Origin: Isurus oxyrinchus
Lineage: Eukaryota
Direction of reading: 5' to 3'
Length of the DNA stretch: 53,196 bases
Assembly (NCBI GenBank): GCA_026770705.1
Contig: JANJGN010000033.1
Location: forward strand, 9,310,805 to 9,364,000
This document shows positions 6,575 to 51,936 of this stretch, piece after piece (positions within the stretch are counted from its first letter, which is position 1; each line of letters starts with the position of its first letter). Position numbers and translations under genes: made by a program. The notes under the pieces were generated by a model. It saw only the letters and a list, made by a program, of their open reading frames with translations. It did not search any database and was not told the DNA's origin.

Positions 6575-6943
6575 CTTGTACAGTGAGGAATGTTCCAGTG
6601 ATGCTTTGCCACCGCTCGTTATAATTTCCTGTTATATCCACACGACAGAAATACCTGTTCTGGTCACGTTGTTTCAGGTTGTTTATCCGGATGGTTCCAG
6701 TGTTTTTCTGATATGGATTTCCCAGGAAATCAATCCGGCCGTGGTAAAGAGGGTGAGTGTAATTCCGTGAGACGTTGAATATAAATTCTCCGTGAAAATT
6801 ATTTCTTCTCCAGTAAATGTTAATCTTTCTGGGTTTGTGTGCTTCTGGGTAAGTGAATGAACAGGGGATATCGATCGATTTCCCTATCAGCCCGTCCAGG
6901 CGCTCAGGCTGGGACACAGTGAAACCATCTCCATTTATCATCA
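6575..6943 (-). CDS. Gene 1 Ig V-set exon, PILR/Siglec-like receptor
   Basis: Acceptor ctctctcccccAG|TG and donor G|GTaaac; 369 bp, phase 1-1; Ig V motifs DIPCSF, YWRR, D-x-x-x-YFCRV, WQSITGTFLTV. Confidence 0.92.
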
Positions 6944-10711: not shown

Positions 10712-13700
10712 GTCGTGCTTGCAGACCAGCAGGGGCGAGACCTCATCCTGAGCGAGACACAGCCAGAGCGAGTGTGGGTATTGGTAATTTGGTGCCCACT
10801 GGGAATTCAGCGCAGAGGGGAAGAGGTGCTCTTTGTGTTTTTTCTTTGCTTTCCAACTTCTTAAATCTTCAGAGAGTGGTCTTGCCCAGCTGCAGCAGTA
10901 GAGGCTACAAGGGAGAGGAATGGCTGGTAAGTAGTGGGTAAGGTCAGGTAAGTATTGACTACTTTTATTGCTTATAGTTTAAGGTATTATTGTGGGTTTC
11001 AGTTTGTATATTCTGTAGTATCGAGGATCAGGAAAGAAGGTCCCTAGAGTAATTGATTTAAAAGTTTTAATTTAAAGGGATAAGTCATGGCAGGAGAGCT
11101 CAAAGCCGTGGTGTGCTCCTCGTGCTCCATGTGGACCATCCGTGAGCCTGAGAGCATCGTGGGTAGCATGTTTAGAGAGGTGGCCACACCGCAGCTGAAG
11201 GGACTTGAGGAAGGAAGGGACTGGGTGACCACCAGGCAGTCCAAGAGAAACAGGCAGGTAGTTCAGGAATCCCCTGGGGTCCCGCTCGCAAATCGGTATT
11301 CCATTTTGGAGGCTGATAAAGGTGCTGGTTCCTCTAGGGATGCAGCAGAGCCAAGCTTCTGGCACCACAAGCAACCTGTCTGTACAGGAGGGGAGGAAGG
11401 GAGGAAGAGCAATAGTAATAGAGGATTCTATAGTCAGGGGAACAGATAGGCTCTACTGTGGCCGTCAACGTGACTCCAGGATGGTATGTTGCCTCCCTGG
11501 TGCCAGGGTCCGGGATGTCACTGAACGTCTGCAGGGCATCCTGAAGGGGGAGGGTGATAAGGCAGCGGTCATGGTACATGTTGGTACCTACGACATAGAA
11601 AGAGGGATGAGGTCTTGCATCAAGAATTCAGGGAGTTTGGCAGTGGACTAAAAAACAGGACCTCTCGTGTTGTAATCTCTGGATTACTCCCAGTGCCATA
11701 TGCTAGAGAGCTCAGAAATAGGAGAATAGCGCAGATGAATATGTGGCTTAAGAGTTGGTACAGGAGGGAGGGTTTTGGATTCCTGGATCACTGGGACCGT
11801 TTCTGGGGAAGGTGGGTGCTGTACAATCAGGACGGTCTACATCTGAACCAGAGCGGGCGGGTTTGCTAGTGCTGTTTGGAGGAGTTTAAACTTATTCGAC
11901 AGAGGGAGGGGACACAGAATGTTAGCAAGATAGGGGCACATCAAAATACAGCAAAACAATCATGTCAGAGGGAGTACAGCTGCATTAAGATTCAAGGGGG
12001 TAAGGCAAAGCTGGATGGCCTCTATTTTAATGCCAGGAGTATTACAGGATGAGTTAAGGGTGAGTATTGACATGTGGAATTGTGATATAGTAGTCATCAG
12101 AGAGATGTGGTTGAGAGAGCAGCAGAATTGGCAGCTCAATTGGGATAGACATAGTGTTAAAGGCTTGGATGGAGTGGATTTCTTGAAATGTGTACAGGAG
12201 AACTTTTTAGGTCAATATGTAGAGGGTCCAACAAGGGCCAGTGCAGTGCTGGACCTAATTCTGGGGAATGAAGCCAGACAGGTGGCTGAGGTGGTGGTGG
12301 GGGAGCATTTTAGTGATAGCGAACACAACATGGTACAGTTTAAGCTTGTTATGGACAAAGAAATAGACAAGTTGCAAAAAAATGTTTTGGATTGGGAGGG
12401 AGGGAATTTTAGTAAAATAAGGCAGAATCTGGGAAAGGTAGACTAGGAACAGCTACTTGTGGGGAAATCTGCAGAAGAACAGTGACGGTAGGGGGAGGGT
12501 ATGGTTCAAAAAGGAAATGGGGAGGGTACAGGCTCAACATGTTCCCTCTAGGGTGATAGGAAGGAGTAACAAGCCCAGAGAGCCATGGATGACCAGAGAT
12601 ATTCAGGATACGATGAGAAGGAAAAGAGAGGCTTTTAGCAGGTACAAGGGAAGCAAATCAGTGGAGGCATTAGTGGAGTACAGAAAGTGGAGGGTGGAGC
12701 TTAAGAAAGCAATTAGGAGAGCAAAGAGGGGATATGAGAAAACTCTGGCTGGTAAAAGTAGGGAAAATCCCAAAATATTCTATAAGTATATCACTGGGAA
12801 GAGGATAACCAGGGGAAGAGTAGGGCCCATTAGGGACCATGTGGGCAATCTATGGGTGGAGCCAGAGGACATCACTAGAGTGTTGAACGAATACTTCACA
12901 TCCATCTTCACCCAAGAGAATGAAGATGAAGATATTGAACTCGGGGAGTGAGACTGTGAAGTTCTTGAGCAAATTGATATAGGGAGTGACAAGGTATTGG
13001 AGGTGTTAGCCAGCTTAAAAGTGGACAAATCCCCAGGTTTGGATGATTTGTGTCCCAGACTGCTGAGGGAGGCAAGGGAGGAGACAACAGGGGATCTGAC
13101 CCAAATTTTTAATTCCTCTCTGGCCACCGGGGAGGTGCCAGAGGAATAGAGAACAGCTAATGTGGTTCCGCTATTTAAGAAGGGTTGTAGAGATAACCCA
13201 GGAAACTACAGAGCACTGAATCTCACATCAGTGGTAGGGAAACTATTGGAGAAAGTTCTGAAGGAGAGAATCTATCTCCACTTGGAGAGGCAAGGTTTGA
13301 TCAGGGATAGTCAGCATGGCTTTGTCAGAGGGAGGTCATGCCTAACAAATTTGATTGAATTTTTTGAGGAGGTGACCAGGTGTGTCGATGAGGGTAGTGC
13401 AGTTGATGTAGTTTATATGGATTTCAGCAAAACCTTTGACAAGGTCCCACATGGGAGACTTATAAAGAAGGCAAATGCGCATGGGATACAGGGTAATTTG
13501 CTAAGGTGGATTCAAAATTGGCTTAGTTGTAGGAGACAGAGGATGATGACAGAAGGATGCTTTAGTGACTGGAAGCCAGTGTCCAGTGGCGTACCACAGG
13601 GATCTGTGCTGGGTCCCCGATCATTCGTCATTTATAAAACAACATAGATGACTATGTGGAAGGTAGGATTAGTAAGTTTGCGGATGACACAAAGATTGGC

Positions 13701-14610
13701 CGGGTGGTTAACAGTGAGGTTGATTGTCTTGGGCTACAGAAAGATATAGATGGGATGGTTAAATGGGCAGATAAATGGCAGATGGAATTTAACCCTGAAA
13801 AAACGTGAGGTGATACACTTTGGAAGGAGTGCTTTGACAAGGAAGTGTTCAATGAACGGCATGACACTAGGAAGTTCTGAGGAACAAAGGGACCTTGGCG
13901 TGTGTGTCCATAGATCTCTGAAGGCAGAGGGGCATGTTAGTGGGGTGGTGAAAAAGGCATATGGGACACTTGCCTTTATCAATCGAGGCATCGATTACAA
14001 AAGTAGGGAAGTCATGTTGGAGTTGTATAGAACCTTGGTGAGGCCACAGCTGGAGTACTGTGTGCAGTTCTGGTCACCACATTATAGGAAGGATGTGATT
14101 GCACTGGAGAGGGTGCAGAGGATATTCACCAGGATGTTACCTGGGATGAAACATTTAAGTTATGAAGAGAGGTTGGATAGACTTGGGTTGTTTTTGTTGG
14201 AGCAGAGAAGACTGAGGGGCGACCTGATCGAGGTGTACAAGATTATGAGGGGCATGGACAGGGTGGATAGGGAGCAGCTGTTCCCCTTAGTTGAAGGGTC
14301 AGTCATGAGGGGACATAAGTTCAAGGTGAAGGGCAGGAGGTTTGGGGGGATGTGAGGAAAAACTTTTTTACCCAGAGGGTGGTGACGGACCAGAATGTGC
14401 TGCCTGGGAGGGTGGTGGAGGCGGGTTGCCTCACATCCTTTAAAAAGTACCTGGATGAGCACTGGGCACGTCATAACATTCAAGGCTTTGGGACAAGTGC
14501 TGGTAAATGGGATTAGGGAGGTAGGGCAGGTGTTTCTCACTTGTCGGTGCAGACTTGATGGGTCGAAGGGCCTCTTCTGCACTGTGTGATTATGTGATTC
14601 TGTAATTCTG
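10712..14610 (+). mobile_element. Near full-length but inactive CR1 LINE (ORF1 zinc finger/SGNH esterase, ORF2 RT)
   Basis: MAGELKAVVCSSCSMW; IEDSIVRG..CLPGAR..HVGT; RT motifs QHGFVRGRSCLTNL, YMDFSKTFDKVPH, GVPQGSVLGP, FADDTKI; (gtgattct)-like tail. Stops, frameshifts and a partly deleted endonuclease. Empty site at 50121-50125. Confidence 0.93.
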
Positions 14611-15528: not shown

Positions 15529-15571
15529 CAACAGAGAGGTAGAGAAGGATCAGGCAGAGAGCAGAGTCCAT
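15529..15571 (-). CDS. Gene 1 proximal leader (signal peptide) exon, MDSALCLILLYLSV
   Basis: ATG start, 43 bp, G|GTGAGT phase-1 donor in frame with the V exon; hydrophobic; homologous copies in all units. Confidence 0.85.
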
Positions 15572-16039: not shown

Positions 16040-16600
16040 GGTCCCAGCTTCACGGATACCAGTCTTCAGCCAATTTGATTCACTCCACATGATCTCAAGA
16101 AACAGCTGAAGGCACCGGATGGAGCAGAGGCAATGGCAATAGTACTGAAGACTTGTTTCCCAGAACTAGCCATGCCCCAAGCCAAGTTGTCCGAGTACAG
16201 CTATAACACGGGCATCTACCCGACAAACTAACATTCACACCACACAAGTGCCAGGCAATGGCCATCTCCAACAAGAGAGAATCCAACCATCGCCCCTTGG
16301 TGATCAATGGCATTGCCATCACTGAAACTCCCACTATCAACATCCTGGGGGTTACCATTGACCTGAAACTGAACTGGACCAGCCGTATAAATACTTTGGC
16401 TACAAGAGCAGGTCAGAGGCTGGGAATCCAGCGGAGAGTAACTCACCTCCTGACTCCCTAAAACCCGTCCACCATCCACAAGGCACAAGTCAGGAGTGTG
16501 GTGGAATGCTCCCCACTTTCCTGGAGGAGTGCAGCTCCCACAACACTCAAAAACTCAACACAGTTCAAGACAAATAAGGATCAGCACCACATCCACCACT
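16040..16600 (+). mobile_element. CR1 LINE fragments
   Basis: PHKCQAMAISNKRES..TINILGVTIDLKLNWTS. The copies at ~33020-33270 and ~51540-51800 lack about 300 bp of this segment. Confidence 0.75.
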
Positions 16601-18838: not shown

Positions 18839-18881
18839 CGGCGGAGAGGCACAGAATGATCAGAGAGAGAGCAGAGTCCAT
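18839..18881 (-). CDS. Unit 1 distal (second) leader exon, MDSALSLIILCLSA
   Basis: 43 bp, ATG, G|GTGAGT phase-1 donor; paralogue of 15529-15571. Confidence 0.72.
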
Positions 18882-24944: not shown

Positions 24945-24980
24945 TCAGGGGTCGTTTGATTTTTCTACCGTGTGAGATAC
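24945..24980 (-). CDS. Gene 2 terminal cytoplasmic exon, VSHTVEKSNDP*
   Basis: Acceptor ttctattttaacAG|GTA; phase 0 matches the TM-exon donor; identical coding sequence in gene 3. Confidence 0.7.
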   Translation of the reverse strand, partial: VSHTVEKSNDP

Positions 24981-25044: not shown

Positions 25045-26180
25045 ATTCATCTCTGGGATGTGAGCTTCACTGGCTGCGCCAACATTTACTGCCCATCCCT
25101 AGTTGCCCTTGAGAAGGTGCTGATGAGCTGCCTTCTTGAGCTGCCGCAGTACATTATGTAGATGCACCCGCCGGGCTGCTCAGGAGGGAGTTCCGGGATT
25201 TTAACCCAGCGGCAGTGAAAGAATGACGATATATTTCCGAGTCAGGATGATGAGTGACTTGGAGGGGGACTGGTGGTGTTCCCATGCAGCTGCTGCCCTT
25301 GTTTTTTTCGGTGGTTCAGGTTTCCTGTTTAGAACTTCACTCAAAAGACCTTGGTGAGTTGCAGCAGTGCACCTTGTAGTGTTTCAGTGGTCGTCCTAAT
25401 GTTTAGGGTGAGAGATGGGGTGCCAATCATGAGGGCTGCTTTGTACTGGAGGCTGTGGAGCTTCTTGAGTGTTGTGGGAGCTGAGCTCATCCAGGCAAGT
25501 GGAGAGTATTCCATTACACTCCTGACTTGTAGATGGTGTGCTGCCTTTGGGGAGTCAGAAGGTGAGTTACTCGTTGCAGAATTCCTAACCTGCTCTTGTA
25601 GCCACAGTGTTTATATGGCTGGGTCACTTTAATTCTCAACATTGGTAACTTCCAGGATTTTGATAGTGAGGGATTCAGCGATCGCAATGACATTGAATGT
25701 CAAGGGGGTGCTGCTTAGACTCTATCTTATTTGAGATGGTCATTGCCTGGCACTGGTGTGGCATGAACGTTACTTGCCACTCACCAGCCCAAGCCTGAAT
25801 GGTCTCCATGTCTTGCACCATGCAGGTGTCATCAGCATCTGTACCTGAGGAGTTGTGAATGGTGCTGACCATTGTACAGTCACCAGTGACCATCCCCACC
25901 TCTGACTTCTGGATGGAAGGAAGGTCATTGAAGAAGCAGATGAAGATGTTTGGCCCTCGGACACATCCCTGTGGAATGCCTGCATCGAGGCCCTGGGATT
26001 GGGAACCACCACCACCTTCCTTTGTGTTCGATGAGACTCTATCCAGTGGAGACTTTCCCCAGTGCTCCTTGATGTCACACTCGGTCAAATGTTACCCTGA
26101 TCTCAAGAGCAGTCACTCTCATCTCACCTCTGGAATTCAGCTCTGTTATCCAGGTTTGGAGCAAGGCTGGAATGAGGACA
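25045..26180 (-). mobile_element. CR1 LINE fragment
   Basis: GIPQGCVRGPNIFICFFNDLP..IQAWAGEWQVTF and family 3' tail. Confidence 0.8.
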
Positions 26181-26324: not shown

Positions 26325-26515
26325 CGTAACTTCTCTGCTCTTCATCAGATAAATTCCGACCAGCCAGACAATCGCCAGCATTCCCAGAGCGAGAACGGAC
26401 CGGATGATCAGGATTACACCCTGGCCCAGTTTGTCTTCATCTTCCCCAGTGAGCTCTGATGTTGCTGCAGTCACTGAGGGGGTTAACGGGGCTGGTGAGG
26501 GTGTGGGTCCCTGTC
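26325..26515 (-). CDS. Gene 2 stalk and transmembrane exon (Arg in TM)
   Basis: Acceptor tatttcacAG|GA (phase 1); GQGPTPSPAPLTPSVTAATSELTGEDEDKLGQGVILIIRSVLALGMLAIVWLVGIYLMKSREVT; donor G|GTaatc. Confidence 0.88.
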
Positions 26516-26608: not shown

Positions 26609-29353
26609 CCAGTGTCAGAAATCCTGGGAGACAGGAGTGTCAGTGTGGGACACCCTGGGGGAGACAGGAGTCTCAGTGTGGGAGACCCTGGGGGAGACAG
26701 GAGTGTCAGTGTGGGAGTCCCTGGGGGAGACAGGAGTCTCAGTGTGGCAGGCCCTGGGGGAGACAGGAGTCTCAGTGTGGGAGACCCTGGGGAAGACAGG
26801 AGTGTCAGTGTGGGAGACCCTGGTGAGACAGGAGTGTCAGTGTGGGAGACCCTGGGGGAGACAGGAGTGACAGTGTGGGAGACCCAGGGGAGACAGGAGT
26901 GTCAGTGTGGGAGACCCTGGTGAGACAGGAGTGTCAGTGTGGGAGACCCTGGGGGAGACAGGAGTGACAGTGTGGGAGACCCAGGGGAGACAGGAGTGTC
27001 AGTGTGGGAGACACTGGGGGAGACAGGAGTGTCAGTGTGGGAGACCCTGGGGGAGACAGGAGTGACATTGTGGCAGACCCTGGGAGAGACAGGAGTGTCA
27101 GTGTGGGAGACCCTGGGAGAGCCAGGAGTGTCAGTGTGGGAGACTCTGGGGGAGACAGGAGAGTCAGTGTGGGAGACCCTTGGGAGACAGGAGTGTCAGT
27201 GTGGGAGACTCTGAGGGAGACAGGAGTGTCAGTGTGGGAGAACCTGGGGGAGACAGGAGTGTCATTGAGGGAGACCCTGGGGAGACAGGAGTGTCAGTGT
27301 GGGAGCCCCTGGGGGAGACAGGAGTGTCAGTGTGGAAGACCCTGGGGGAGACAGGAGTGTCAGTGTGGGAGACACTGGGGAGACAGGAGTGTCAGTGTGG
27401 GAACCCCTGGGAGAGACAGGAGTGTCAGTGTGGGAGACCCTGGGGGAGACAGGAGTGTCAGTGTGGGAGACCCTGGGGAGACAGGAGTGTCAGTGTGGCA
27501 GACCCTGGGGAGACAGGAGAGTCAGTGTGGGAGACCGTGGGGAGACAGGAGTGTCAGTGTGGGAGACCCTGGGGAGACAGGAGTGTCAGTGTGGGAGACA
27601 CTGGCGGAGACAGGAGTGTCAGTGTGGGAGACCCTGGGGGAGACAGGAGTGTCAGTGTGGGAGACCCTGGGGGAGACAGAATTGTCAGTGTGGGAGACAC
27701 TGGGGGAGACAGGAGTGTCAGTGTGGGAGACACTGGCGGAGACAGGAGTGTCAGTGTGGGAGACACTGGCGGAGACAGGAGTGTCAGTGTGGGAGACACT
27801 GGCGGAGACAGGAGTGTCAGTGTGGGAGACCCTGGGGGATACAGGAGTGTCAGTGTGGGAGACCCTGGGGGAGACAGGATTGTCAGTGTGGGAGACCCTG
27901 GGGGAGACAGGAGTGTCAGTGTGGGAGACCCTGGGGGAGACAGGAGTGTCAGTTTGGGAGACCCTGGGGGAGACCCTGGGGGAGACAGGAGTGTCATTGA
28001 GGGATACCCTGGGGAGACAGGAGTGTCAGTGTGGGAGCCCCTGGGGGAGACAGGAGTGTCGGTGTGGAAGACCCTGGGGGAGACAGGAGTGTCAGTGTGG
28101 GAGACCCTGGGGAGACAGGAGTGTCAGTGTGGGAGACACTGGGGAGACAGGAGTGTCAGTGTGGGAACCCCTGGGGGAGACAGGAGTGTCAGTGTGGGAG
28201 ACCCTGGGGGAGACAGGAGTGTCAGTGTGGCAGACCCTGGGGAGACAGGAGAGTCAGTGTGGGAGACCGTGGGGAGACAGGAGTGTCAGTGTGGGAGACC
28301 CTGGGGGAGACAGGAGTGTCAGTGTGGGAGACACTGGCGGAGACAGGAGTGTCAGTGTGGGAGACCCTGGGGGAGACAGAATTGTCAGTGTGGGAGACCC
28401 TGGGGGAGACAGGAGTGTCAGTGTGGGAGACCCTGGGGGATACAGGAGTGTCAGTGTGGGAGACACTGGCGGAGACAGGAGTGTCAGTGTGGGAGACCCT
28501 GGGGGATACAGGAGTGTCAGTGTGGGAGACCCTGGGGGAGACAGGATTGTCAGTGTGGGAGACCCTGGGGGAGACAGGAGTGTCGGTGTGGGAGACCCTG
28601 GGGGAGACAGGAGTGTCAGTTTGGGAGACCCTGGGGGAGACCCTGGGGGAGACAGGAGTGTCAGTGTGGGACACCCTGGGGGAGACAGGAGTGTCAATGT
28701 GGGAGACCCTGGGGGAGACAGGAGTGTCAGTGTGGGAGTCCCTGGGGAGACAGGAGTGTCAGTGTGGGAGTCCCTGGAGAGACAGGAGTGTCAGTGTGGG
28801 AGACCCTGGGGGAGACAGGAGTGTCAGTGTGGGAGACCCTGGGGGATAGAGGAGTGTCAGTGTGGGAGACACTGGCGGAGACAGGAGTGTCAGTGTGGGA
28901 GACCCTGGGGGATACAGGAGTGTCAGTGTGGGAGACCCTGGGGGAGACAGGATTGTCAGTGTGGGAGACCCTGGGGGAGACAGGAGTGTCGGTGTGGGAG
29001 ACCCTGGGGGAGACAGGAGTGTCAGTTTGGGAGACCCTGGGGGAGACCCTGGGGGAGACAGGAGTGTCAGTGTGGGACACCCTGGGGGAGACAGGAGTGT
29101 CAATGTGGGAGACCCTGGGGGAGACAGGAGTGTCAGTGTGGGAGTCCCTGGGGAGACAGGAGTGTCAGTGTGGGAGACCCTGGGGAGACAGGAGTGTCAG
29201 TGTGGGAGACCCTGGGGGAGACGGGAGTGTCAGTGTGGGAGACCATGGGGAGACAGGAGTGTCAGTGTGGGAGTCCCTGGGGAGACAGGAGTGTCAGTGT
29301 GGGAGTCCCTGGAGAGACAGGAGTGTCAGTGTGGGAGACCCTGGGGGAGACAG
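26609..29353. repeat. 33-bp minisatellite array (~84 units), V-TM intron of gene 2
   Basis: Same unit as 16749; internal block duplications at offsets 732 and 406. Confidence 0.95.
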
Positions 29354-29403
29354 GGTCTCAAAATGTTAGAGAGAGAAATGGAAAGATCCAACTGAGTGTT
29401 TAC

Positions 29404-29772
29404 CTTGTACAGTGAGGAATGTTCCAGTGATGCTTTGCCACTGCTCGTTATAATTTCCTGTTATATTCACACGACAGAAATACCTGTTCTGGTCACGTTG
29501 TTTCAGGTTGTTTATCCGGATGGTTCCAGTGTTTTCCTGATATGGATTTCCCAGGAAATCAATCCGGCCTCGGTAATGAGGGTGAATGTAACTCCGTGAG
29601 ACGTTGAATATAAATTCTCCGTGATAATTATTTCTTCTCCAGTAAATGTTTATCTTTCTGGGTTTGTGTGTTTCTGGGTAAGTGAATGAACAGGGGATAT
29701 CGATCGATTTCCCTATCAGCCCGTCCAGGCGCTCAGGCTGGGACACAGTGAAACCATCTCCATTTATCATCA
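29404..29772 (-). CDS. Gene 2 Ig V-set exon, PILR/Siglec-like
   Basis: 369 bp, phase 1-1, same splice sites as gene 1; 9 aa differences from V1. Confidence 0.92.
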
Positions 29773-29892
29773 CTGGGGGAGAGAGAAACAGTAAGTGGTT
29801 ATTTCGGAATCGCCAATAAATCTCATCCAATAGAAACCCAGTCCCGGAATGCTCTCAGGAACAGGGAAACTCCGAATCCGAAAGTGCAGCCG

Positions 29893-30535
29893 GTAAATCT
29901 GTAAATCTGTTATTCTATATATAAACCACACGAACCCTGAGATTAGATTCCAGTCTGTAACTCTGTAAATCTGTTATTCTATATATAAACCACACGAAAC
30001 CTGAGATTAGATTCCAGTCTGTAACTCTGTAAATCTGTTATTCTATATATAAACCACACGGACCCTGAGATTAGATTCCAGTCTGTAACTCTGTAAGTCT
30101 GTTATTCTATATATAAACCACACGAACCCTGAGATTAGATTCCAGTCTGTAACTCTGTAAATCTGTTATTCTATATATAAACCACACGAACCCTGAGATT
30201 AGATTCCAGTCTGTAACTCTGTAAATCTGTTATTCTATATATAAACCACACGCACCCTGAGATTAGATTCCAGACTGTAACTCTGTAAATCTGTTATTCT
30301 ATATATAAACCACACGAAACCTGAGATTAGATTCCGGTCTGAAACAATGTAAATCTGTTATTCTAGATTTAAACCACACGAACCCTGAGATTAGATTCCA
30401 GTCTGTAACTCTGTAAATCTGTTATTCTATAGTTAAACCACACGAACCCTGAGATTAGACCCCACTCTGTAACTCACTCCCGGGTATCTTCTAATCTATG
30501 CATTAACCCCCTCAATCCCTCGATCAGACTCCAGT
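29893..30535. repeat. 64-bp minisatellite (9 clean units)
   Basis: Same unit as 7064. Confidence 0.9.
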
Positions 30536-30625
30536 TTTTAATGTGTCTCTAACACTTCTCGGTTTTGATTGACGGTGACTGTGGGGCCTTGATGATTGAC
30601 ACTTTTCCTCTCCTAATGTTTCTGT

Positions 30626-31096
30626 GAGTGGAATTTTCCCAAATTGGCACCAAGCAAACCGAGATTTTACCCGTCGGGTGCGATGGTGGGATTTCACCCT
30701 GCATTGTCCCAAACCTGCCTCATTATTTACACGCTCCCGGGAAACACACCGATTCCACCGTGGGCAGGCTCTCATTCGCCCGCCTGTCATCGATCCACCG
30801 TCGCATCACGCTGGCCGCCATGTTTGAAATCCAGTCACAAGCACATCGCTCATTGCTTCCAGCTCACCACCCAGTGCCCAGGAGTCATGGCCAGCAATGG
30901 AAATAAGACTGGAGACCCCACCCCCTGCTTCAATAACGGCTCCCTCAAGTGACTGTGCATGTGGTGGGGCTGACCTGGATGTCCTGTATCCCCCGCTCTG
31001 GCCACAGGATGGGCAGCAATGTGACCAATCCAGCTTGGGAGGTATTGGCAGTGGTGGTCAGCGCCAACGCCCTTCAGATCAGGACAACCACCCAGG
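30626..31096 (+). mobile_element. Harbinger left end and 5' part of the Myb/SANT gene
   Basis: MASNGNKTGDPTPCF..DVLYP..AWEVLAVVVSANALQ; overlaps the start of the 7604 copy. Confidence 0.65.
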
Positions 31097-31654
31097 GCCT
31101 AACAAGTTTGACTGAATTTATTGAGGAGGTGCCCAGGTGTGTAGATGAGGGTAGAGTAGTTGATGTAGTTTACATGAATTTCAGCAAAGCCTTTGACAAG
31201 GTCCCACATGGGAGACTTATAAATAAGGCAAAGAAGCAGAGAAGACTGAGGGGTGACCTGATCGAGGTGTACAAGATGATAAGGGGCATAGACAGGGTGG
31301 ATAGGGAACAGCTGATCACCTTAGTTGAAGGGCCATTCACAAGGGGACACAAGTTCATGGAGAGGGGCAGGAGGTTTAGGGGGGATGTGAGGGAAAACTT
31401 TTTTTACCCAGAGGGTGGTGACGGTTTGGAATGCGTTGCCTGGGAGGGTGGTGGAGGCGGGTTGCCTCACATCCTTTAAAAAGTACCTGGATGAGCAATT
31501 GGCACGTGATAACATGTAAGGCTATGGGACAAGTGCTGGTAAATGGGATTAGGGAGGTAGGGCAGGTGTTTCTCACTTATCGGTGCTGACTCGATGGGCC
31601 GATGGGCCGAAGGGCCTCTTTTGCACTGTGTGACTCTGTGATTCTGTAATTCTG
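31097..31654 (+). mobile_element. Internally deleted CR1 remnant, same insertion as 10712-14610
   Basis: LTEFIEEV..YMNFSKAFDKVPH fused to QRRLRGDLIEVYK; identical 3' junction attctg|tcactgcagtgttaaac. Confidence 0.85.
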
Positions 31655-32535
31655 TCACTGCAGTGTTAAACAGACCATTTCCACCTGGAGTCTGTAATGA
31701 GCAGCTCCCAGCACTGTCTCTATTTTTGTCTTTTACTTAGTAAAACCACAGCTCAGTGTTCCCTGACAACCATTTAGTGACCTCCCCCATCGATTACTGC
31801 CAGCTCATTTTCCCTCCTCCACACTCCTCAACTCATCCTCCAAATCCTATCCCACTCTAACTCCTGCTCACCCAACTTCACCCTCCGCCCTCCCCGTTCT
31901 CACTCAACCCCACAGGCTCCCAGTCCATCAACACCTCCTGCACTTTAAATCCTTCCATTGCTTCCAGCACACCCACCCCACCCTTTCACTCTAACCTGCT
32001 CCAGCCCTACAGCCCTCCAATACGTCTGCTTTCTCCCAGGTCCAGCATTCCGTGTGTCTTTCACTCCCTTTGTGCCAACATAGTGGTTTGTGCTTTTAAC
32101 TATCTGAATCCCTAGCTCTGCTATTCATTATCTAAGCCTCTCTGCCTCTCTCCTCCTTTCCTTCAAGACCGTCCTTAAAATCCATATCTTTGACCGATCA
32201 TTGGGTCTCTCCTCATAATATCTCCTTTGGCTCTGAGTCCCTATGATGAAGACGCTTCTGGTGAGCACCTTGGGAACATTTCCTTTGTTAAAGGGGCTTC
32301 TCCAGCTGTTGTTGTTGTGGTCCCTCCTTAACTCTTCAACCTGAGTGGGCATCACATCAGCGCCAATTGGATTGAACATCCCTCCGTCAAATGGAAAGCA
32401 AGGAAAAGCTTTGGGAGGTTCCACAAGGCTCTGTGCCTTTGGGAGGATCTGGGTGGGTGGTGAGGAGCTGCAGGGGAGGCTGGTGATGTGGTGGGTACAA
32501 AGCAAAGGGAGGGATATCAGATAGGGTTTACTCAC

Positions 32536-32578
32536 CGACGGAATGGTAGAGAAGGATCAGGCAGAGAGCAGAGTCCAT
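32536..32578 (-). CDS. Gene 2 proximal leader exon, MDSALCLILLYHSV
   Basis: 43 bp, ATG, G|GTGAGT. Confidence 0.85.
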
Positions 32579-33407
32579 TGCAGCTCCTCAACTCACTCTG
32601 CGGGTGTGGGAGAGGCTTCGATGATGACGGAACGTTGAGATGGGACTTTGTCACACACATCTGAGCAGTTAGTTCTGCTTTTCATTTTCCCGTTTCAGTA
32701 ATATCCTGTTTAGAAAATCCACTCCCCTCATCCGTGGCTGAGGCCGATTTATTGTGCCCAGGACCAGCCTGAGGATAGACAGTGAATCCTGGGACACTGG
32801 TAAGTGGGGGCAGGATGGACGTTCAGTGAAAGGGGGATCGCTGAGGGTCAGGGGACGTGGAGGGGCGCTGTGGGGGAACACTGGTTGTAACATTCAGCAG
32901 TACACTCTCCTGAGGTCAGGTCCCTAGAGAAGGCACTCGGTGTCTGTGAATGAGGGTCACCCACCCATTCTTCAGCCAGAAGTCCCAAGTGGATGATCCA
33001 ACTCAGCCTCCTCCGCAGGTCCCAGCTTCACAGATACCAGTCTTCAGCCAATTTGATTCACCCCACGTGATCTCAAGCAACAGCTGAAGGCACCGGATAG
33101 AGCAGAGGGTATGACAATAGTACTGAAGACTTGTTTTCCAGAACTAGCCATGCCCCTAGCCAAGTTGTCTGAGTACAGCTATATCACTACCCGACAATCT
33201 AACATTCACACCACACAAGTGCCAGGCAATGGCCATCTCCAACAAGAGAGAATCCAGCCACATCCACCACATTAAAAGTTGACCTTCTGCACATTTGGAG
33301 CATCGTAACAGTGACTTCAATAAGATCATGGCTGGCCTGATTATCACCTTAATTATACTTTCATTCCGCATATCGTGTGGATCTCCTCAGGATTAAGCTT
33401 GTCGTAG

Positions 33408-34250
33408 TCCCTGGGGAGACAGAGGGAGACAGGAGTGTCAGTGTGGGAGACCCTGGGGGAGACAGGAGTGTCAGTGTGGGAGACCCTGGGGGAGACAGGA
33501 GTGTCAGTGTGGGAGACCCTGGGGGAGACAGGAGTGTCAGTGTGGGAGACCCTGGGGGAGTCAGGAGTGTCATTTTGGGAGACCCTGGGGAGACAGGACA
33601 GTCAGTGTGGGAGGCCCTGGGGGAGACAGGAGTGTCAGTGTGGGAGGCCCTGGGGGAGACAGGAGTGTCAGTGTGGGAGACCCTGGGGGAGACAGGAGAG
33701 TCAGTGTGGGAGTCCCTGGGGGAGACAGGGTTTTCTGTGTGGGAGACCCTGGGGGAGACTGAAGTGTCAGTGTGGGAGACCCTGGGGGTGACAGGAGTGT
33801 CAATGTGGGAGACCCTGGGGGAGACAGGAGTGTCAGTGTGGGAGACCCTGGGGGAGACAGGATTTTCAGTGTGGGAGACCCTGGGGGAGACAGAAGTGTC
33901 AGTGTGGGAGACCCTGGAGGTGACAGGAGTGTCAATGTGGGAGACCCTGGGGGAGACAGGAGTGTCAGTGTGGGAGACCCTGGGGGAGACAGGAGAGTCA
34001 GTGTGGGAGACCCTGGGGGAGACAGGAGTGTCAGTGTGGGAGACCCTGGGGGAGACAGGAGTTTCAGTGTGGGAGACCCTGGGGGAGACAGGAGTGTCAG
34101 TGTGGGAGACCCTGGGGGAGACAGGAGTGTCAGTGTGGGAGACCCTGGGGGAGTCAGGAGTGTCAGTGTGGGAGGCCCTGGGCGAGACAGGAGTGTCAGT
34201 GTGGGAGACCCTGGGGGAGACAGGAGTGTCAGTGTGGGAGACCCTGTGGA
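33408..34250. repeat. 33-bp minisatellite array (~25 units)
   Basis: Same unit; lies between the two leader exons of unit 2. Confidence 0.95.
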
Positions 34251-36310: not shown

Positions 36311-36353
36311 CGGCGGAGAGGCACAGAACGATCAGAGAGAGAGCAGAGTCCAT
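36311..36353 (-). CDS. Unit 2 distal leader exon, MDSALSLIVLCLSA
   Basis: 43 bp, ATG, G|GTGAGT; near-identical to 18839-18881. Confidence 0.72.
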
Positions 36354-38629: not shown

Positions 38630-41530
38630 ATTCATCTCTGGGATGTGAGCTTCAGTGGTTGCACCAGCATTTATTGCCCATCCCTAGTTGCCCTTGAGAA
38701 GGTGGTGATGAGCTGCCTTCTTGAGCTGCCGCAGTACATTGTGTAGATGCACCCGCCGGGCTGTTCAGGAGGGAGTTCCGGGATTTTGACCCAGCGACAG
38801 TGAAGGAACGGTGATATATTTACAAGTCAGGATGGAGAGTGGACTTGGAGGGGAGCTCCCAGTGGTGATGTTCCCCATTTGTCTGCTGCCCTTGTCCTTC
38901 AAGATGATAGTGCTCGTGGGTTTGGAAGGTGCTGTCGAAGGAGCCACTGGGATATTTTCCTGTCAAATTAATAAAATTGCATGATGCTGTTGAAGTAAAA
39001 TTTGTACACTCTGCTTAATAGTCATGGTGGGATCACCTATACGATGTACTCAAACTAACACAGCGCTATGTTGCTGCTACTCTCAATATTAAGTAGCCTT
39101 GCTGCATAGATATCGAGCGGCATTTTTAACCCGATGCCAACAATGGGCTTTATCATTTTGCTAGCACCTTCCTGTCATTGTTTGGTGACTTGGTCGGTGA
39201 ATCTCGGAAGGGGGATAAAATATCAGGAATAGTGAGAGGAGAGGGTTAAAGAGGTGGCAGGGTGTTTTGGGGGAGGTGGGTGGAATGAAAATGCAAACAC
39301 TCTGGGAAACAGGTTCGAATCCCATCTGGGCAGGTGGTGGAATTCGAATTCAATTAATTAATGAAGTCTGGAATCTAAATCTAGTCTCGGGAATGGTGAC
39401 CATGAATTTGTCATCAATTATTGTAAAAACCCCTCTGGGTCACTAATGCCCCTAAGGGAAGGAAATCTGCCATCCTTACCGGGTCTGGCCTTCCTGTGAC
39501 TCCAGACCCACAATAAGCAGTTGAATTTTAACTGCCCTCTGCATTGGCTGAGCAAGCCCCTCCTTTGAAGGGGCAATTAGGGATGGGCAACAAATGCTGA
39601 CCTTCCCAGTGAAGACCACATCCTGTGAAAGAGTGAAAAATAAACAAATAAGGGGCCTGCAAACAGGAGAAGAGCCGTGGCCCGTGACTTTTCTCTCTGG
39701 CTCTGGGTTCATGGCAGAGCTGACACTCCACAGAATTTAAATTACCACAAAAAAAAATTTAGCAGCAAACAGAGACTATTTCACCACAGAAATGTACAGC
39801 ATTAGAGTTTATTTACTCAGCGAACAGGGTCTGTTATTTATATTCTTTTACAGCATGTGGGCATTGCTGTCTAGGCCAGCATTTATTGCCCATCACTAAT
39901 TGCCCCTTGAGAAGGTGCTGGTGAGATGCTTTCTTGTGACGCTGAACCCTATGGGGTGGAGGTACACCCACACTGCTGTTAGGGACGGAGCTCCAGGATT
40001 TTGACCCAGTTGGTTTCAATTCTGCACTAAAGCAAGTCTTCACCAGCGTCTGCTTCAAAAGGAGGTTATAATTAGTTCAGAAAAGTGTCGTCTGCTAAGG
40101 ATGTGGCTCCTTCATTTGATAATGAGTGATCCGGCAAAATTGCAGGGCCCAGCACATCAGGACATATGGCCCTCAGTCACAGATTCTGACTGGTGACTTC
40201 AGTTTGATCCACTCGTCTCTCGTTTGGTCTGTTCCCAGAACCTTCGATCGGGAGAATCTGAAATTGATAACACAGGTTTATAGCAGCGAAACTCCCATGT
40301 GAAAGGACTGAGGCAACAACCAGGAATTCCAATTGACCAGAAGGAGGGACACTCAATGCTTGCAACTTTCACTCATGAGATGTTAGCATTACTGGCTCAG
40401 CCAATCTTTATTGCCCATCCCTAATTGCCCTTGAGAAGGTGGTGGCGAAGCTCCTTCTTGAACCACTGCAGTCCGTGTGGTGTAGGTACACCCACAGTGC
40501 TGTTAGGGAGGGAATACCAGGATTTTAACCCAGAGAGAGTGAAAGAATGGTGATATATTTCCAAGGCAGAATGGTGAGTGACTTGGAAGGGAACAGGCAA
40601 TTGGTGGTGTTCCCATGCATCTGCTGCTCTTGTCTATTTTGGTGGTTGAGGTTTCCTGTTTCGAACTTCAGTTAAAGGGACCTTGGGGAGTTGCTGCAGT
40701 GCATCTTGTAGATGGTACACACTGATGTCTCTGTGTGTCAGTGGTGGAGGCATTCAATGTTTTTGGATATGGTGCCAATCAAGCAGGGCTGCTTTGTACT
40801 GGATGGTGTGGAGCTTCTTGAGTGTTGTGGGAGCTGAGCTCATCCAGGCAAGTGGGGAGTATTCCATCACACTCCTGACTTGTAGATGGTGTGCTGCCTT
40901 CGAGGAGTCAGAAGGTGAGTTACTTGTTGCAGAATTCCTATCCTGCTCTTGTAGCCACAGTGTTTATATGGCAGGGTCAGTTTAATTCTCATCAATAATA
41001 ACACCCAGGAAGTTGATAGTGGGGGACTCAGCAATGGAAACTTCGTTAAAGGTCAAGGGGGTGCTGCTTAGACTCTATCTTATTTGAGATGGTCATTGCC
41101 TGGCACTGGTGTGGCACGAATGTTACTTGCCACACACCAGCCCAAGCCTGAATGGTCTCCATGTCTTGCACCATGAAGGTGTCATCAGCATCTGTACCTG
41201 AGGAGTTGTGAATGGTGCTGACCATTGTACAGTCACCAGAGACCATCCCCACTTCTGACTTCTGGATGGAAGAAAGGTCATTGAAGAAGCAGATGAAGAT
41301 GTTTGGCCCTCGGGCACATCCCTGTGGAATGCCCACATCGAGGACCTGGGATTGGGAACCACAACCACCTTCCTTTGTGCTTGATGAGACTCTATTCAGT
41401 GGAGAGATTCCCTAGTGCTCCTTGATGTCACACTCGGTCAAATGTTACCCTGATCTCAAGAGCAGTCACTCTCACCTCAGCTCTGGAATTCAGCTCTGTT
41501 ATCCAGGTTTGGAGCAAGGCTGGAATGAGG
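38630..41530 (-). mobile_element. Cluster of CR1 3' fragments (38630-38945, 39835-40010, 40385-41530) plus a SINE
   Basis: Repeated family tails and RT motif GIPQGCARGPNIFICFFNDL. Confidence 0.75.
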
Positions 41531-41677: not shown

Positions 41678-41867
41678 CGTAACTTCTCTGCTCTTCATCA
41701 GATAAATTCCGATCAGCCAGACAATCGCCAGCATTCCCAGAGCGAGAACGGACCGGATGATCAGGATTACACCCTGGCCCGGTGTGTCTTCATCTTCCCC
41801 AGTGAGCTCTGATGTTGCTGCAGTCACTGAGGGGTTAACGGGGCTGGTGAGGGTGTGGGTCCCTGTC
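41678..41867 (-). CDS. Gene 3 stalk/TM exon carrying a 1-bp deletion (stop at 41824-41826 from the usual acceptor)
   Basis: 190 bp vs 191 bp in gene 2; G-run 41831-41834 has 4 G vs 5 G at 26478-26482. TM VILIIRSVLALGMLAIVWLIGIYLM is otherwise intact. Confidence 0.8.
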
Positions 41868-47082: not shown

Positions 47083-50000
47083 CCATCAGCCTGAGCCTCC
47101 AGTCAAGTCCTGAGGAAACCTCAGAAGTGGAATCTGGAGGCAGCCCCTCTGAACTCCCATCACAGCGCTCCCGCACACCCTCTACCAGCGCAGAGACACT
47201 CACCTCAGTAAGACCTAGATTTAGAGTTGCCTCAGAGTCACAAGCAGCTGAACACATCGCACTTTCTGATCCACAGCAGGTGGAGGCAGGGACTTCCCAG
47301 TTCCCCGGAACTCGCAGGACTGCTGGAGGCCAGAACGTTGCTGCGTCCAAGTCAGATGATGAGCCTCTGGTCTCAGTCATTGCACTGTCGCTGGAGCTGC
47401 ACAGACAAGCTGGGGAACATCAGGAAGGGATGTCTGCTGCACTCCTCAGATTGCAAGGCACGATGGAGGAGTCTCCGTCTTCAGTCTGAGGTGATAGCGC
47501 CGGCATTGCCAACGCAGCGAGGTCAACACTGGCAGGGTGGCAGCCACCATGGAGACCTTGGTCCAGGACATCACTCCTGCCCTGCTGCGTGGGCTGAACT
47601 CCATCACTGATACCATTGTTGGCCTCCAAAAGTGTGTATGTGAGAGGGGTGCTGGGCAGCTCGGTCTCACTCCAACCACCCCTGCTCCACATGGAGTCAG
47701 ACTGGGGCACTCAGGCACCCATAGGGAGGAGGATCAGCAGCTGTACACTCCGAGCCCACCCACCCAGGGGTCTCCGGTAGTGTCCGGCCCATCAACCGCC
47801 TATTCCTGTTACCTCCGTAGCTCCAGCTCCACAGGCCAAGGAGGGAGTCACTGCCACACAGCAGGACCTCGAAAGCAGGCCGGGGCCCTCCAAGTCTCAG
47901 CCCTCCAGAGGACTCCCGCCAGGGTCATTACAGACAGGGCTTCACAGTCAGCAGGCTGTCTCCACCTCCACTGTGGATGTCTGGGGAGCACCAAGACGTA
48001 GTGGCAGGATTAGGAAGGTTAAGGGGAATTAGTTACACAGCCTGGACACTGTTGATCACTTGTACATAATGTTCACTATTGTCAATAAACTCCCAAGAAT
48101 GTCTCCCTGCCTGTGGCACCTTGTTCTGATGAGCAGTGTTCTTGTCACTCAGATGTGAAACCTTTCTGCACAAGATAAAGGCAGGTGTCTCTGTCCAGGG
48201 CCTCTTTCCTGTGTCTGTGCAGCCTTCAGACCACAGTGATGGTCCAGCCTCACACTCCCTGGAAACATTACTGATGCCTGCACCTCGGTGGTGCTGGTCA
48301 TTGCTGCCAGAATGTAGTGAGCAGGGCCACAGAGTTCTCCCATTCTCTCAATGTGCTCTCAGTGTCTGTAAAGTGAGGCTGGCCCCATCTCTTCAGTATC
48401 TGTGACCACTGATGCTGTTCCCCAGCTCCTGAAGGGCTCAGGTGCTGAAGGTGGACAAAGCATCAGATACTTCTAAAGTTTCATGGCTGTGTCTCTATGA
48501 TATGACCCTGATCATGGAACGCAAGCGAGCTGCCTTCGGCTAGACAGGAGTCAGACATTCTCAGAGACCATATGAAGATCTATGGAGTGTCCTCACTGCA
48601 GCATCATCTCCCTGTGATTGAGCGACTATTAGGGCCTCCACTGCATCTTCATGACAGGAGCATTCTCACAAATGTCTGCGGCCACTTTACTGGACTGCGG
48701 AGCAGTTGGACTTCATCAACTTCAAGAGTATCCACTCGCTGAACGTGTAGCTGGTGTGGGACCAACAGAAACACATCCTGCAGAAATGCACATGCTTTCC
48801 AGGGAATGAATGACTTCTACATCCTGAGTCGCTCACATTTGTGCTGCCATAAGCCAGACTGGAGTCAAACGTTCACAACTGGGATGTGAGGGTCTACGGA
48901 GACACTTCACTGCATCTGGTCATCATCCACCTCAAATCTAGCAGCTATGAGGGCCTCCTGAGTGTGCCATCCTCATCTGGCCTCATCCCTGTCATTGTCA
49001 CCTCCATGGACCTCCTCACCCTCAAGTTCCTCATCGGAGTAGACATGCATTTCCTCCAACTCCTCCTCAGCCAGCTCCTCTCCCTGTTGCAGTGCCAGGT
49101 TGTAAAGGGTGCAGCAGACGACAATGTGTGAGACTCTCTGTGGACTGTATTGCAGGGCTCCACCAGACCGGTCCAGGCACCGGAACCTCATCTTCAGCGT
49201 CCCGATGGTCTGCTCCACCAAGTTGTGAGTTGCTGCATGAGCCTCATTATAGCGTCACTCTGCTGCAGTCTGAGGCTGCTGCACGGGTGTCATCAGTCAC
49301 AGTCTCTGTGGGTAACCCTTGTCCCTGAGGAGCCATCCCTGCAGCCTCTGTGGACCCTGGAAGCCTCCAGGGATTTGTGAGCGACTCAGGATGTAGAAGT
49401 CATTCATTCCCTGGAAAGCATGTGCATTCCTGCAGGATGTGTTTCTGTTGGTCCCACACTAGCTACACGTTCAGCGAGTGGAAACTCTTGCGGTTGATGA
49501 AGTCCAACTGCTCCGCAGTCCAGTAAAGTGGCCGCAGACATGCAGCCTGTGTCAGGGTGCTGGGTGGGTAAGGTCTGGAGGGCTTGGTGGCACATTGGTG
49601 CCTCCGCATTGCTTGTGTGGGCGGGCAGGCTAGGAGGCCGACCCGACCATATCACTGTGGCTGTGCCTGACCTGTCCCGGTTGCAGAGGAAAGGTCAGTT
49701 TATACAGGTGTCCCTCCCGTGTGGACAACAGTTGACCCTGGGCGAGCTCTGCAGGATGTTGCTGCTCACTCACCTCCAGTTTGCCCCAGAGTGAAGGCCG
49801 CCAAGTGCACGTGGCCTGTGCGCTGTTGTGAAACACGTTGACGTGCTTTCCCGCCAACGTGGGTGGGTGATCCGGTGGGGAGGGGGGTGTGTGAGAACCT
49901 GCCTTCCTACTGTCGTGAAGCTGATGGCGCCATATTGACCACACACACCACCCATCATGCCAGCTGCCCGCCAGGAAATTCCACCCAAAGCAGCTGATTT

Positions 50001-51043: not shown

Positions 51044-51086
51044 CGACGGAGAGGTACAGAAGGATCAGGCAGAGACCAGAGTTCAT
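51044..51086 (-). CDS. Gene 3 proximal leader exon, MNSGLCLILLYLSV
   Basis: 43 bp, ATG, G|GTGAGT. Confidence 0.85.
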
Positions 51087-51936
51087 TGCTGCTCCTCACC
51101 TCACTCTGCGGGTCTGGGAGAGGCTTCGATGTTCACGGAACGATGAGATGGGGCTTTGTTATACACATCTGAGCAGTTAGTTCTGCTTTACAAATTCCTG
51201 TTTCTGTAATCTCACAACCTACTCCAGTTAGGAAATCCCCTCCCCTCATCTGAGGCTGAGGCTGATTATTGTGCCCAGGACCAGCCTGAGTATCGACAGT
51301 GGAACCGGGACACTGGTAAGTGGGGGCAAGATGGGGGTGTTCAGAGAGAGGGGGATCACCGGGGATCAGGGGGCGTGGAGGGGGGCTGTGGGGGTACAAT
51401 GGTGGTAACATTCAGCAGTACACTCTCTTCCTGAGGTCAGGTAGCTAGAGAAGGCACTCGGTGTCTGTGAATGAGGGTTATCCACCCATTCTTCAGCCAG
51501 AAGTGCCGAGTGGATGATCCATCTCAGTCTCCTCCGCAGGTCCCAGCTTCACAGATACCAGTCTTCAGCCAATTTGATTCACCCCACATGATCTCAAGAA
51601 ACAGCTGAAGGCACCGGATGGAGCAGAGGCTATGGCAATAGTACTGAAGACTTGTTTCCCAGAACTAGCCATGCCCCAAGCCAAGTTGTCCGAGTACAGC
51701 TAAAACACGGGCATCGACCCGACAATCTAACATTCACACCACACAAGTGCCAGGCAATGGCCATCTCCAACAAGAGAGAATCGAGCCACATCCACCACAT
51801 TAAAAGTTGACCTTCTGCACCATTGGAGCATCGTAACAGTGACTTCAATAAGATCATGGCTGGCCTGATTATCACCTTAATTATACTTTCATTCCGCATA
51901 TCGTGTGGCTCTCCTCAGGATTAAGCTTGTCGTAGT

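Follow-up and report, generated by a model that had tools for sequence, protein, structure and literature searches.

Conversion-matched pairs of inhibitory and activating receptors are textbook knowledge for the Siglecs and are documented for mammalian PILR. Siglec-5/14 and Siglec-11/16 are such pairs, with V-set domains kept alike by ongoing gene conversion, and the standard argument for paired receptors holds that selection keeps the V domains matched because any pathogen that binds the inhibitory receptor will then set off the activating one as well (PMC13358205, which also describes conversion at the mammalian PILR locus). Mammalian PILR proteins comprise one V-set domain, a stalk and a transmembrane (TM) segment, a member with an immunoreceptor tyrosine-based inhibitory motif (ITIM) adjoins a member with a charged TM, and PILR beta signals via DAP12 (PMC3533184); the locus has been shaped by duplication and conversion in six mammals (PMC2077338). 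We found no account of a shark locus in the literature on PILR outside mammals, a search in which most subscription journals were not covered. Here we describe a stretch of 53,196 nucleotides from the shark Isurus oxyrinchus (contig JANJGN010000033.1, C33, positions 9310805-9364000; hereafter the window), which belongs to a cluster of PILR-like receptors with six V exons. We consider it probable (roughly 0.84) that gene 2 of this window is the predicted activating partner of the ITIM-bearing gene 1, and that its patchwork structure likely arose by repeated conversion with its tandem neighbours.

An earlier note on this DNA had taken gene 2 for a single mosaic, with a gene-1-like V exon and intron on a gene-3-like chassis, created by conversion in a Siglec-like setting. 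The conversion of a ligand-binding exon within a paired-receptor system is upheld by the comparisons below; the setting, the number of events and the part played by conversion are revised.

Genes 1 and 2 as members of a PILR-like family

A DNA search of the 4.98-Gb genome with the gene 2 V exon as query gave six matches, all of them on C33 within 100 kb. We added 40 kb of left and 100 kb of right flank to the window, and coordinates called extended continue the window numbering. The cluster consists of one inhibitory-type gene and five activating-type units, some of them broken, in tandem units of about 17 kb each; an arginine-bearing TM exon is present in genes 3, 4, 5 and 6 and in an orphan unit, as well as in gene 2.

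Pfam recognizes a V-set domain in all three exons tested, and the exon chains, like a spliced contig, contain a single V-set followed by stalk and TM. When a profile of 12 shark sequences was searched against the PDB, PILR alpha/beta came first (E 8e-29 to 9e-26) and took the top five of 14 matches, with pIgR at 1e-18 and Siglec-15 far below at 2e-14; a single-sequence search placed pIgR first by summed multi-domain score and PILR best per domain. The F-strand motif Y[FY]CRV occurs in genes 1-4, and the shark YFCRV aligns to YFCRV of human PILR; its arginine is presumably the residue essential for sialic acid. Siglecs have C2-set domains following the V domain, whereas the shark V is joined straight to the stalk/TM exon, and no C2-set domain follows the V-set in the RNA-type contigs or the aligned shark models. 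Judged from these profiles and alignments, the family is PILR-like, not Siglec; what it has in common with Siglec-5/14 and Siglec-11/16 is an opposite-signalling pair with V-set domains matched by conversion. An NCR3/NKp30-like identity is unsupported, as the named matches and the PDB search indicate PILR. We note that in an atlas search with the white shark isoform P0020 the second match was a cluster named PILR alpha (0.97), with taxa given only to phylum, which we treat as a lead only.

Gene 2 lies on the minus strand and is composed of a 43-nt leader exon running from ATG to a GT donor (32536-32578), an open PILR-like V-set exon (29404-29772), an intact exon for stalk and TM whose helix has an arginine close to its outer end, as in activating receptors (26325-26515), and a last coding exon of 11 residues without tyrosine (24945-24980), beyond which contigs extend to 24747; joined, these exons form a 212-aa open frame. 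Gene 1, on the same strand, has its leader at 15529-15571 and its V exon at 6575-6943, and five further exons, located by means of P0020, lie left of the window at C33 9285873-9306160. The predicted gene of seven exons, whose five tail exons have AG/GT ends, encodes a 290-aa open frame identical to P0020 at 254/290 residues. Its TM is uncharged, and two in-frame ITIM-like motifs fitting [ILVS]xYxx[LVI] stand in the last of the predicted exons. This rules out the possibility that gene 1 lacks a TM. The V domains of genes 1 and 2 are identical at 113/122 residues and are joined to TM/tail regions of opposite type.

Like mammalian PILR, then, the shark cluster combines a single V-set domain, stalk and TM with an ITIM member and a charged-TM member. 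It differs in having a single inhibitory gene beside five activating-type units, in keeping a cysteine at the B-strand site where human PILR has phenylalanine, and in retaining in the activating V a tryptophan where wild-type human PILR beta has leucine. CD89, NKp30 and NKp46, which follow the FcR-gamma/zeta pattern, carry an arginine close to the upper end of the TM (PMC13107469), and the position of the gene 2 arginine would fit that adaptor type rather than the DAP12 of PILR beta.

Layers of divergence along gene 2

The mosaic structure is most directly seen in characters that group the genes differently. The V exon of gene 2 differs from that of gene 1 at 11 of 369 nt (97% identity) and from that of gene 3 at 46 of 366, and the intron behind the gene 2 leader holds a CR1 remnant (31097-31654, plus strand; 46 differences/546 to gene 1) matching part of a near-complete, degenerate CR1 long interspersed nuclear element in the gene 1 intron (10713-14610, plus strand, with reverse transcriptase and GDSL-esterase matches). 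The 3' junctions of the two insertions are identical (between 14610 and 14611 in gene 1 and between 31654 and 31655 in gene 2), and the site is empty in gene 3 (between 50124 and 50125) as well as in gene 4, which lies outside the window. Upstream of the leader, a repeat segment of approximately 297 bp that is present in gene 1 (16290-16586) is deleted at one and the same junction in gene 2 (33257 to 33258), gene 3 (51785 to 51786) and gene 4; since gene 1 and a gene-5-linked copy keep the long form, the deletion is derived. Two smaller deletions, also ahead of the leader, are distributed in the same way. The CR1 insertion thus unites genes 1 and 2, the deletion unites genes 2, 3 and 4, and the two are incompatible with a single tree, a conflict that the earlier note had recognized correctly, here extended to gene 4.

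Other parts of the original description need narrowing. Gene-1-like intron sequence is limited to the CR1 insertion and about 75 bp beside it, because the intron as a whole matches gene 1 at no more than 90-92% and genes 3/4 at 89%; the segment at 30476-31095, moreover, is kept in genes 2 and 5 (94%) and absent from genes 1, 3 and 4. The TM/tail region is shared with gene 3 as described, but it is no derived character of genes 2 and 3, because the TM block of gene 2 is about equally distant from gene 3 (92.5%) and from three other units (93.0-93.5%), those four being 97.0-98.9% identical to one another. From these identities, the TM/tail of gene 2 is an ancient activating chassis common to all activating units and to other sharks, and not derived from gene 3. 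Likewise, the deletion junction upstream is shared with gene 3, but the closest partner of the tract that contains it (33032-33408) is gene 4 (2 differences/377) and not gene 3 (15/377). Within the V exon (29570-29651), codons 40, 60, 62 and 67 ally gene 2 to gene 5 and gene 1 to genes 3/4, a pattern by which small patches shuffle the middle loops of the V domain. In place of a single gene-1/gene-3 mosaic, we find several tracts that differ in age and are shared with a minimum of two partners (genes 1 and 4), in addition to the small V patches.

The ages of these tracts are reflected in their divergence. Genes 1 and 2 differ at 12 of 523 positions across the V exon and its flanks (29370-29892; 2.3%), at 46/546 in the CR1 element, at 87/881 in the remaining intron (8-10% for the intron overall) and at 51/350 in the proximal promoter, and the contrast between the V tract and the CR1 element is significant (Fisher p = 9e-6). 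None of the 12 differences falls in the 120-bp non-coding flank (p = 1e-4). The V tract is thus a young layer, bordered at its 5' side by a 64-bp minisatellite (29893-30475), and the CR1 remnant is an old one. The proximal promoter (32657-33007) is an old layer of the activating lineage, which groups with genes 3/4 (support 90/92) and is 12-15% from all copies, including gene 4 (46/350); the upstream tract, 0.5% from gene 4, is again young.

A scan of the triplet of genes 1, 2 and 4 gave a maximum chi-square of 73.6 over 230 sites (permutation p = 1e-4). Up to position 31689 the sites are gene-1-like (51/54), the middle is mixed (60/115), and from 33032 they are gene-4-like (60/61), with breakpoints at 31689-31699 (p = 2e-4) and 33007-33032 (p = 1e-4). 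Of 2000 recombination-free simulations per setting, none reached the statistic under even rates, and 0, 1 and 51 did so as lineage-specific rate unevenness grew. In approximately unbiased (AU) tests, a clade of genes 2, 3 and 4 is rejected for the V block (p = 0.017) and a clade of genes 1 and 2 for the upstream block (p = 0.0001); the blocks were delimited after the scan, which flatters these p-values.

Could the hybrid stem from one unequal crossover whose parents were gene-1-like and gene-3-like? The broad switch from gene-1-like to gene-3/4-like sequence along gene 2, the tandem arrangement of the units and the three upstream deletions common to genes 2, 3 and 4 are all as such an event would leave them. 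However, one event predicts one level of divergence, and four are seen (2.3% in V, 8-10% in the intron, 12-15% in the promoter and 0.5% upstream, the last to gene 4); gene 2 is activating-type again downstream of V, which requires a second switch; and genes 1 and 4, as well as genes 1 and 3, have identity runs of their own (p = 0.0002 each). We therefore regard a single crossover as very unlikely to be the sole cause, although an old crossover may be one among the layers of gene 2.

The assembly itself could in principle have produced such a structure by switching between haplotypes or paralogues, a possibility favoured by the long minisatellites flanking the V exon (on its other side a GC-rich 33-bp minisatellite at 26626-29354, in the V-TM intron), by the 99.5% identity of the upstream tract to gene 4, by a 117-nt piece from runs X1/X2 that carries six other letters at 33084-33200, and by the fact that contigs matching gene 2 are all partial. 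Opposed to this are the private features of gene 2 (the segment at 30476-31095, deletions of its own and about 10% intron divergence from every paralogue) and four stretches of intron, leader and promoter (30402-30715, 31861-32116, 32172-32322 and 32545-32953) in which DNA-type contigs of X1/X2, possibly from the same sample as the assembly, match with 0 differences. Spliced contigs, moreover, connect the arginine TM to a V of the gene 2 type. In run X3, a 755-nt contig matches the last exon and the TM exon of gene 2 with 0 differences each and its V exon, over the full length, with 1, against 11 that the gene 1 V would show; its leader could equally be of the gene 1 or the gene 2 type. A contig of run X8 contains 251 nt of gene-2-type V with 0 differences. 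The gene 2 TM exon is found in spliced contigs of 4/4 runs from two studies, in all of which the TM-to-tail joint skips 1344 nt with CT..AC (intron-type) ends, and it is from these spliced joints that the contigs are assigned an RNA origin, no run being annotated as RNA. White shark protein P0001 also pairs the same V type with an arginine TM. An artefact is accordingly extremely improbable, and gene 2 is a real, spliced, multi-layer mosaic. X1/X2 contigs also show seeming swaps of gene 1 and gene 2 letters at 29442 and 29467, for which shared polymorphism or contig merging are possible sources, and which we did not use.

Repeated conversion would proceed as follows. Units of about 17 kb in tandem would mispair, and tracts would be copied between paralogues where these are homologous, in the leader, the intron, the V exon and the upstream DNA. 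In an old event the CR1-bearing intron would have come to be shared between genes 1 and 2; in younger ones the V exon would have been re-matched between them, and in a further one the upstream tract copied with gene 4. Homology of gene 1 to the activating genes stops shortly past V, and the signalling halves would stay distinct because the two kinds of TM/tail region are non-homologous and cannot pair. By analogy with the family, both V domains would bind sialylated O-glycans via the F-strand arginine, gene 1 would recruit SHP-1/2, and gene 2 would likely signal through an FcR-gamma/zeta-type adaptor. Genes 1 and 2 bear the marks of a converted pair: they are linked, with near-identical ectodomains, opposite signalling motifs, a low-divergence tract and incongruent trees.

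The pair in other sharks

Genes 1, 2, 3/4 and 5 all have counterparts in white shark. We built a protein tree of 23 V domains, from 18 of 19 fetched proteins (the TM-less isoform P0012 excluded) and five of six local V exons (the frameshifted gene 6 excluded); this and the other cross-species groupings are at the protein level and use predicted proteins. Inhibitory and activating types pair by species in all four species from which both were retrieved, with support of 94/92 in this shark, 89/87 in white shark, 97/89 in cloudy catshark and 99/96 in epaulette shark. The V domains of genes 3/4 and 5 join their white shark counterparts instead (100/99 each). A stalk/TM tree of 22 rows separates nine uncharged from 13 charged sequences at 100/99, and the short-tail rows have a charged TM in 13/13 cases; gene 3, gene 6 and the orphan unit are excluded from this tree, and P0002, represented by 25 residues only, still joined gene 1.

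Between this shark and white shark, six V residues are diagnostic of species and one of orthologue, and AU tests reject both orthologue pairings of V (p = 0.0004 and 0.025). Outgroups place four of the six species-diagnostic changes in this lineage, common to genes 1 and 2 (V positions 16, 43, 88 and 122), and two in white shark; as they fall in both, V would have been re-matched in both lineages after the split. At the sole orthologue-diagnostic residue, 49, the inhibitory type of both species has phenylalanine and the activating type has tyrosine. By these trees a pair of the gene 1/gene 2 type predates the split from the white shark lineage, and the proposal that conversion created the pair gives way to one in which conversion maintains it.

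These data also bear on an explanation without recombination, in which selection by a common ligand conserves the V domains of genes 1 and 2, genes 3-5 evolve fast, and the indels are homoplasies. It draws on the long branches of genes 3/4/5, on the V DNA tree, where the node joining genes 1 and 2 is unresolved, and on the excess of the nonsynonymous over the synonymous proportion of differences in 10/10 V pairs (a raw comparison, with no statistic). However, it demands either an exact loss of CR1 or the same deletion arising twice, and leaves unexplained the identity of the 120-bp non-coding flank, the four lineage-derived residues common to genes 1 and 2, and the grouping of V by species in four species; we judge it highly unlikely.

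Several observations nevertheless weigh against repeated conversion, besides the choice of AU block borders and the piecewise coverage of gene 2 DNA by contigs, none of which spans the whole gene. Extreme lineage-specific rate variation brings 2.6% of null runs to the scan statistic, and in the TM block the AU test leaves a grouping of genes 2 and 3 unrejected (p = 0.14). The 120-bp flank also matches genes 3 and 4 at 118/120 positions and is therefore not specific to the pair. In the six-paralogue V-block DNA tree the clade of genes 1 and 2 has support under 80, so part of their V likeness is an ancestral state seen beside fast-evolving genes 3/4/5, and in the protein tree the support for this pair and for that of white shark is under the starred level.

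The remaining cluster and what the pair means

Gene 3, on the minus strand, has a leader exon at 51044-51086, an open V exon of a divergent type with white shark counterpart P0018 (46370-46735) and a stalk/TM exon (41678-41867) frameshifted by a 1-bp loss ahead of the TM, such that its frame ends after 150 residues and a secreted V is predicted. The loss is common to gene 3, the orphan TM unit (extended 59196-59389) and gene 4 (extended 68867-69040), and in gene 4 an additional deletion puts the stalk back in frame. Genes 4 and 5, which continue the array, and gene 6 were located by the gene 2 V search at C33 9382889, 9396487 and 9416159. In gene 5 leucine replaces the F-strand arginine, which its counterparts in white shark and basking shark lack as well, and gene 6 is inverted, with a frameshifted V and a stop inside the TM. 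Approximately 22 kb past gene 6, a mucin-like 14-kb tandem repeat coding for Ala/Thr/Ser/Pro occupies extended 130306-144702.

The gene 1 intron element is closest to that of gene 5, and on these comparisons exchange is cluster-wide and gene 1 is also a mosaic. The element is Harbinger-like (a weak DDE_Tnp_4 match below the cut-off), occurs in the introns of genes 1, 3, 4 and 5 (7612-10316 in gene 1 and 47097-49354 in gene 3), and is in gene 1 96.6% identical to gene 5 and 93% to genes 3/4, while the V exons of genes 1 and 5 are 85% identical. The gene 3 element holds a 166-bp inverted duplicate (97%; 48672-48837 and 49376-49541), as does that of gene 4. A second leader-like exon lies upstream of gene 2 (36311-36353, minus strand), with a copy upstream of gene 1 (18839-18881), and a leader of this type also opens basking shark isoform P0022. 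The 664-bp block of the exon agrees at 97-99% among five units, one of them gene 1, whose flanks are at 89-94%; by this measure it is another homogenised tract. The tail exon of white shark P0001, which exists downstream of genes 3, 4 and 5 and the orphan unit, is missing from gene 2; a comparison of 25054-25302 with 38895-40376 indicates an apparent deletion between two repeat copies. Gene 2 uses a distal tail exon, found also in basking shark models P0017 and P0021.

At the human locus, MEPCE, PPP1R35 and zf-CW (ZCWPW1) family genes are listed with PILRA/B (PMC5446752). Matches to zf-CW, Bin3 and PPP1R35_C lie on C33 at 6.69, 6.77 and 6.81-6.82 Mb, and the receptor cluster at 9.29-9.42 Mb; genes of the MEPCE, PPP1R35 and zf-CW families are therefore on the same contig, 2.5-2.6 Mb off and not adjacent, and none of eight NYAP family matches falls on C33.

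Proteins predicted by NCBI in sharks as PILR alpha or beta (e.g. XP_041034896.1 and XP_041034940.1) belong to the same family as this cluster. Their automatic names are shown here to be reversed with respect to function, the ITIM-bearing white shark protein being called beta and the arginine-TM ones alpha. To the conversion-matched pairs already known, the shark cluster adds an example of this pair logic from cartilaginous fish, one that recurs in four shark species, and a dated record in which a retrotransposon and deletions mark successive exchanges within one gene. We see even odds that the PILR pair is not a mammalian invention, the shark locus being orthologous, its TM lineages separate since before the lamniform, catshark and carpet shark split, its V domains re-matched by conversion in each lineage independently and its activating half coupled to FcR-gamma/zeta and not DAP12. 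If this is true, the difference in adaptor between sharks and mammals would mean either a rewiring of the activating arm or its invention on two occasions. The locus opens the questions of which adaptor the ancestral activating PILR used, and of whether self-recognition of sialic acid by paired receptors dates to the first jawed vertebrates.

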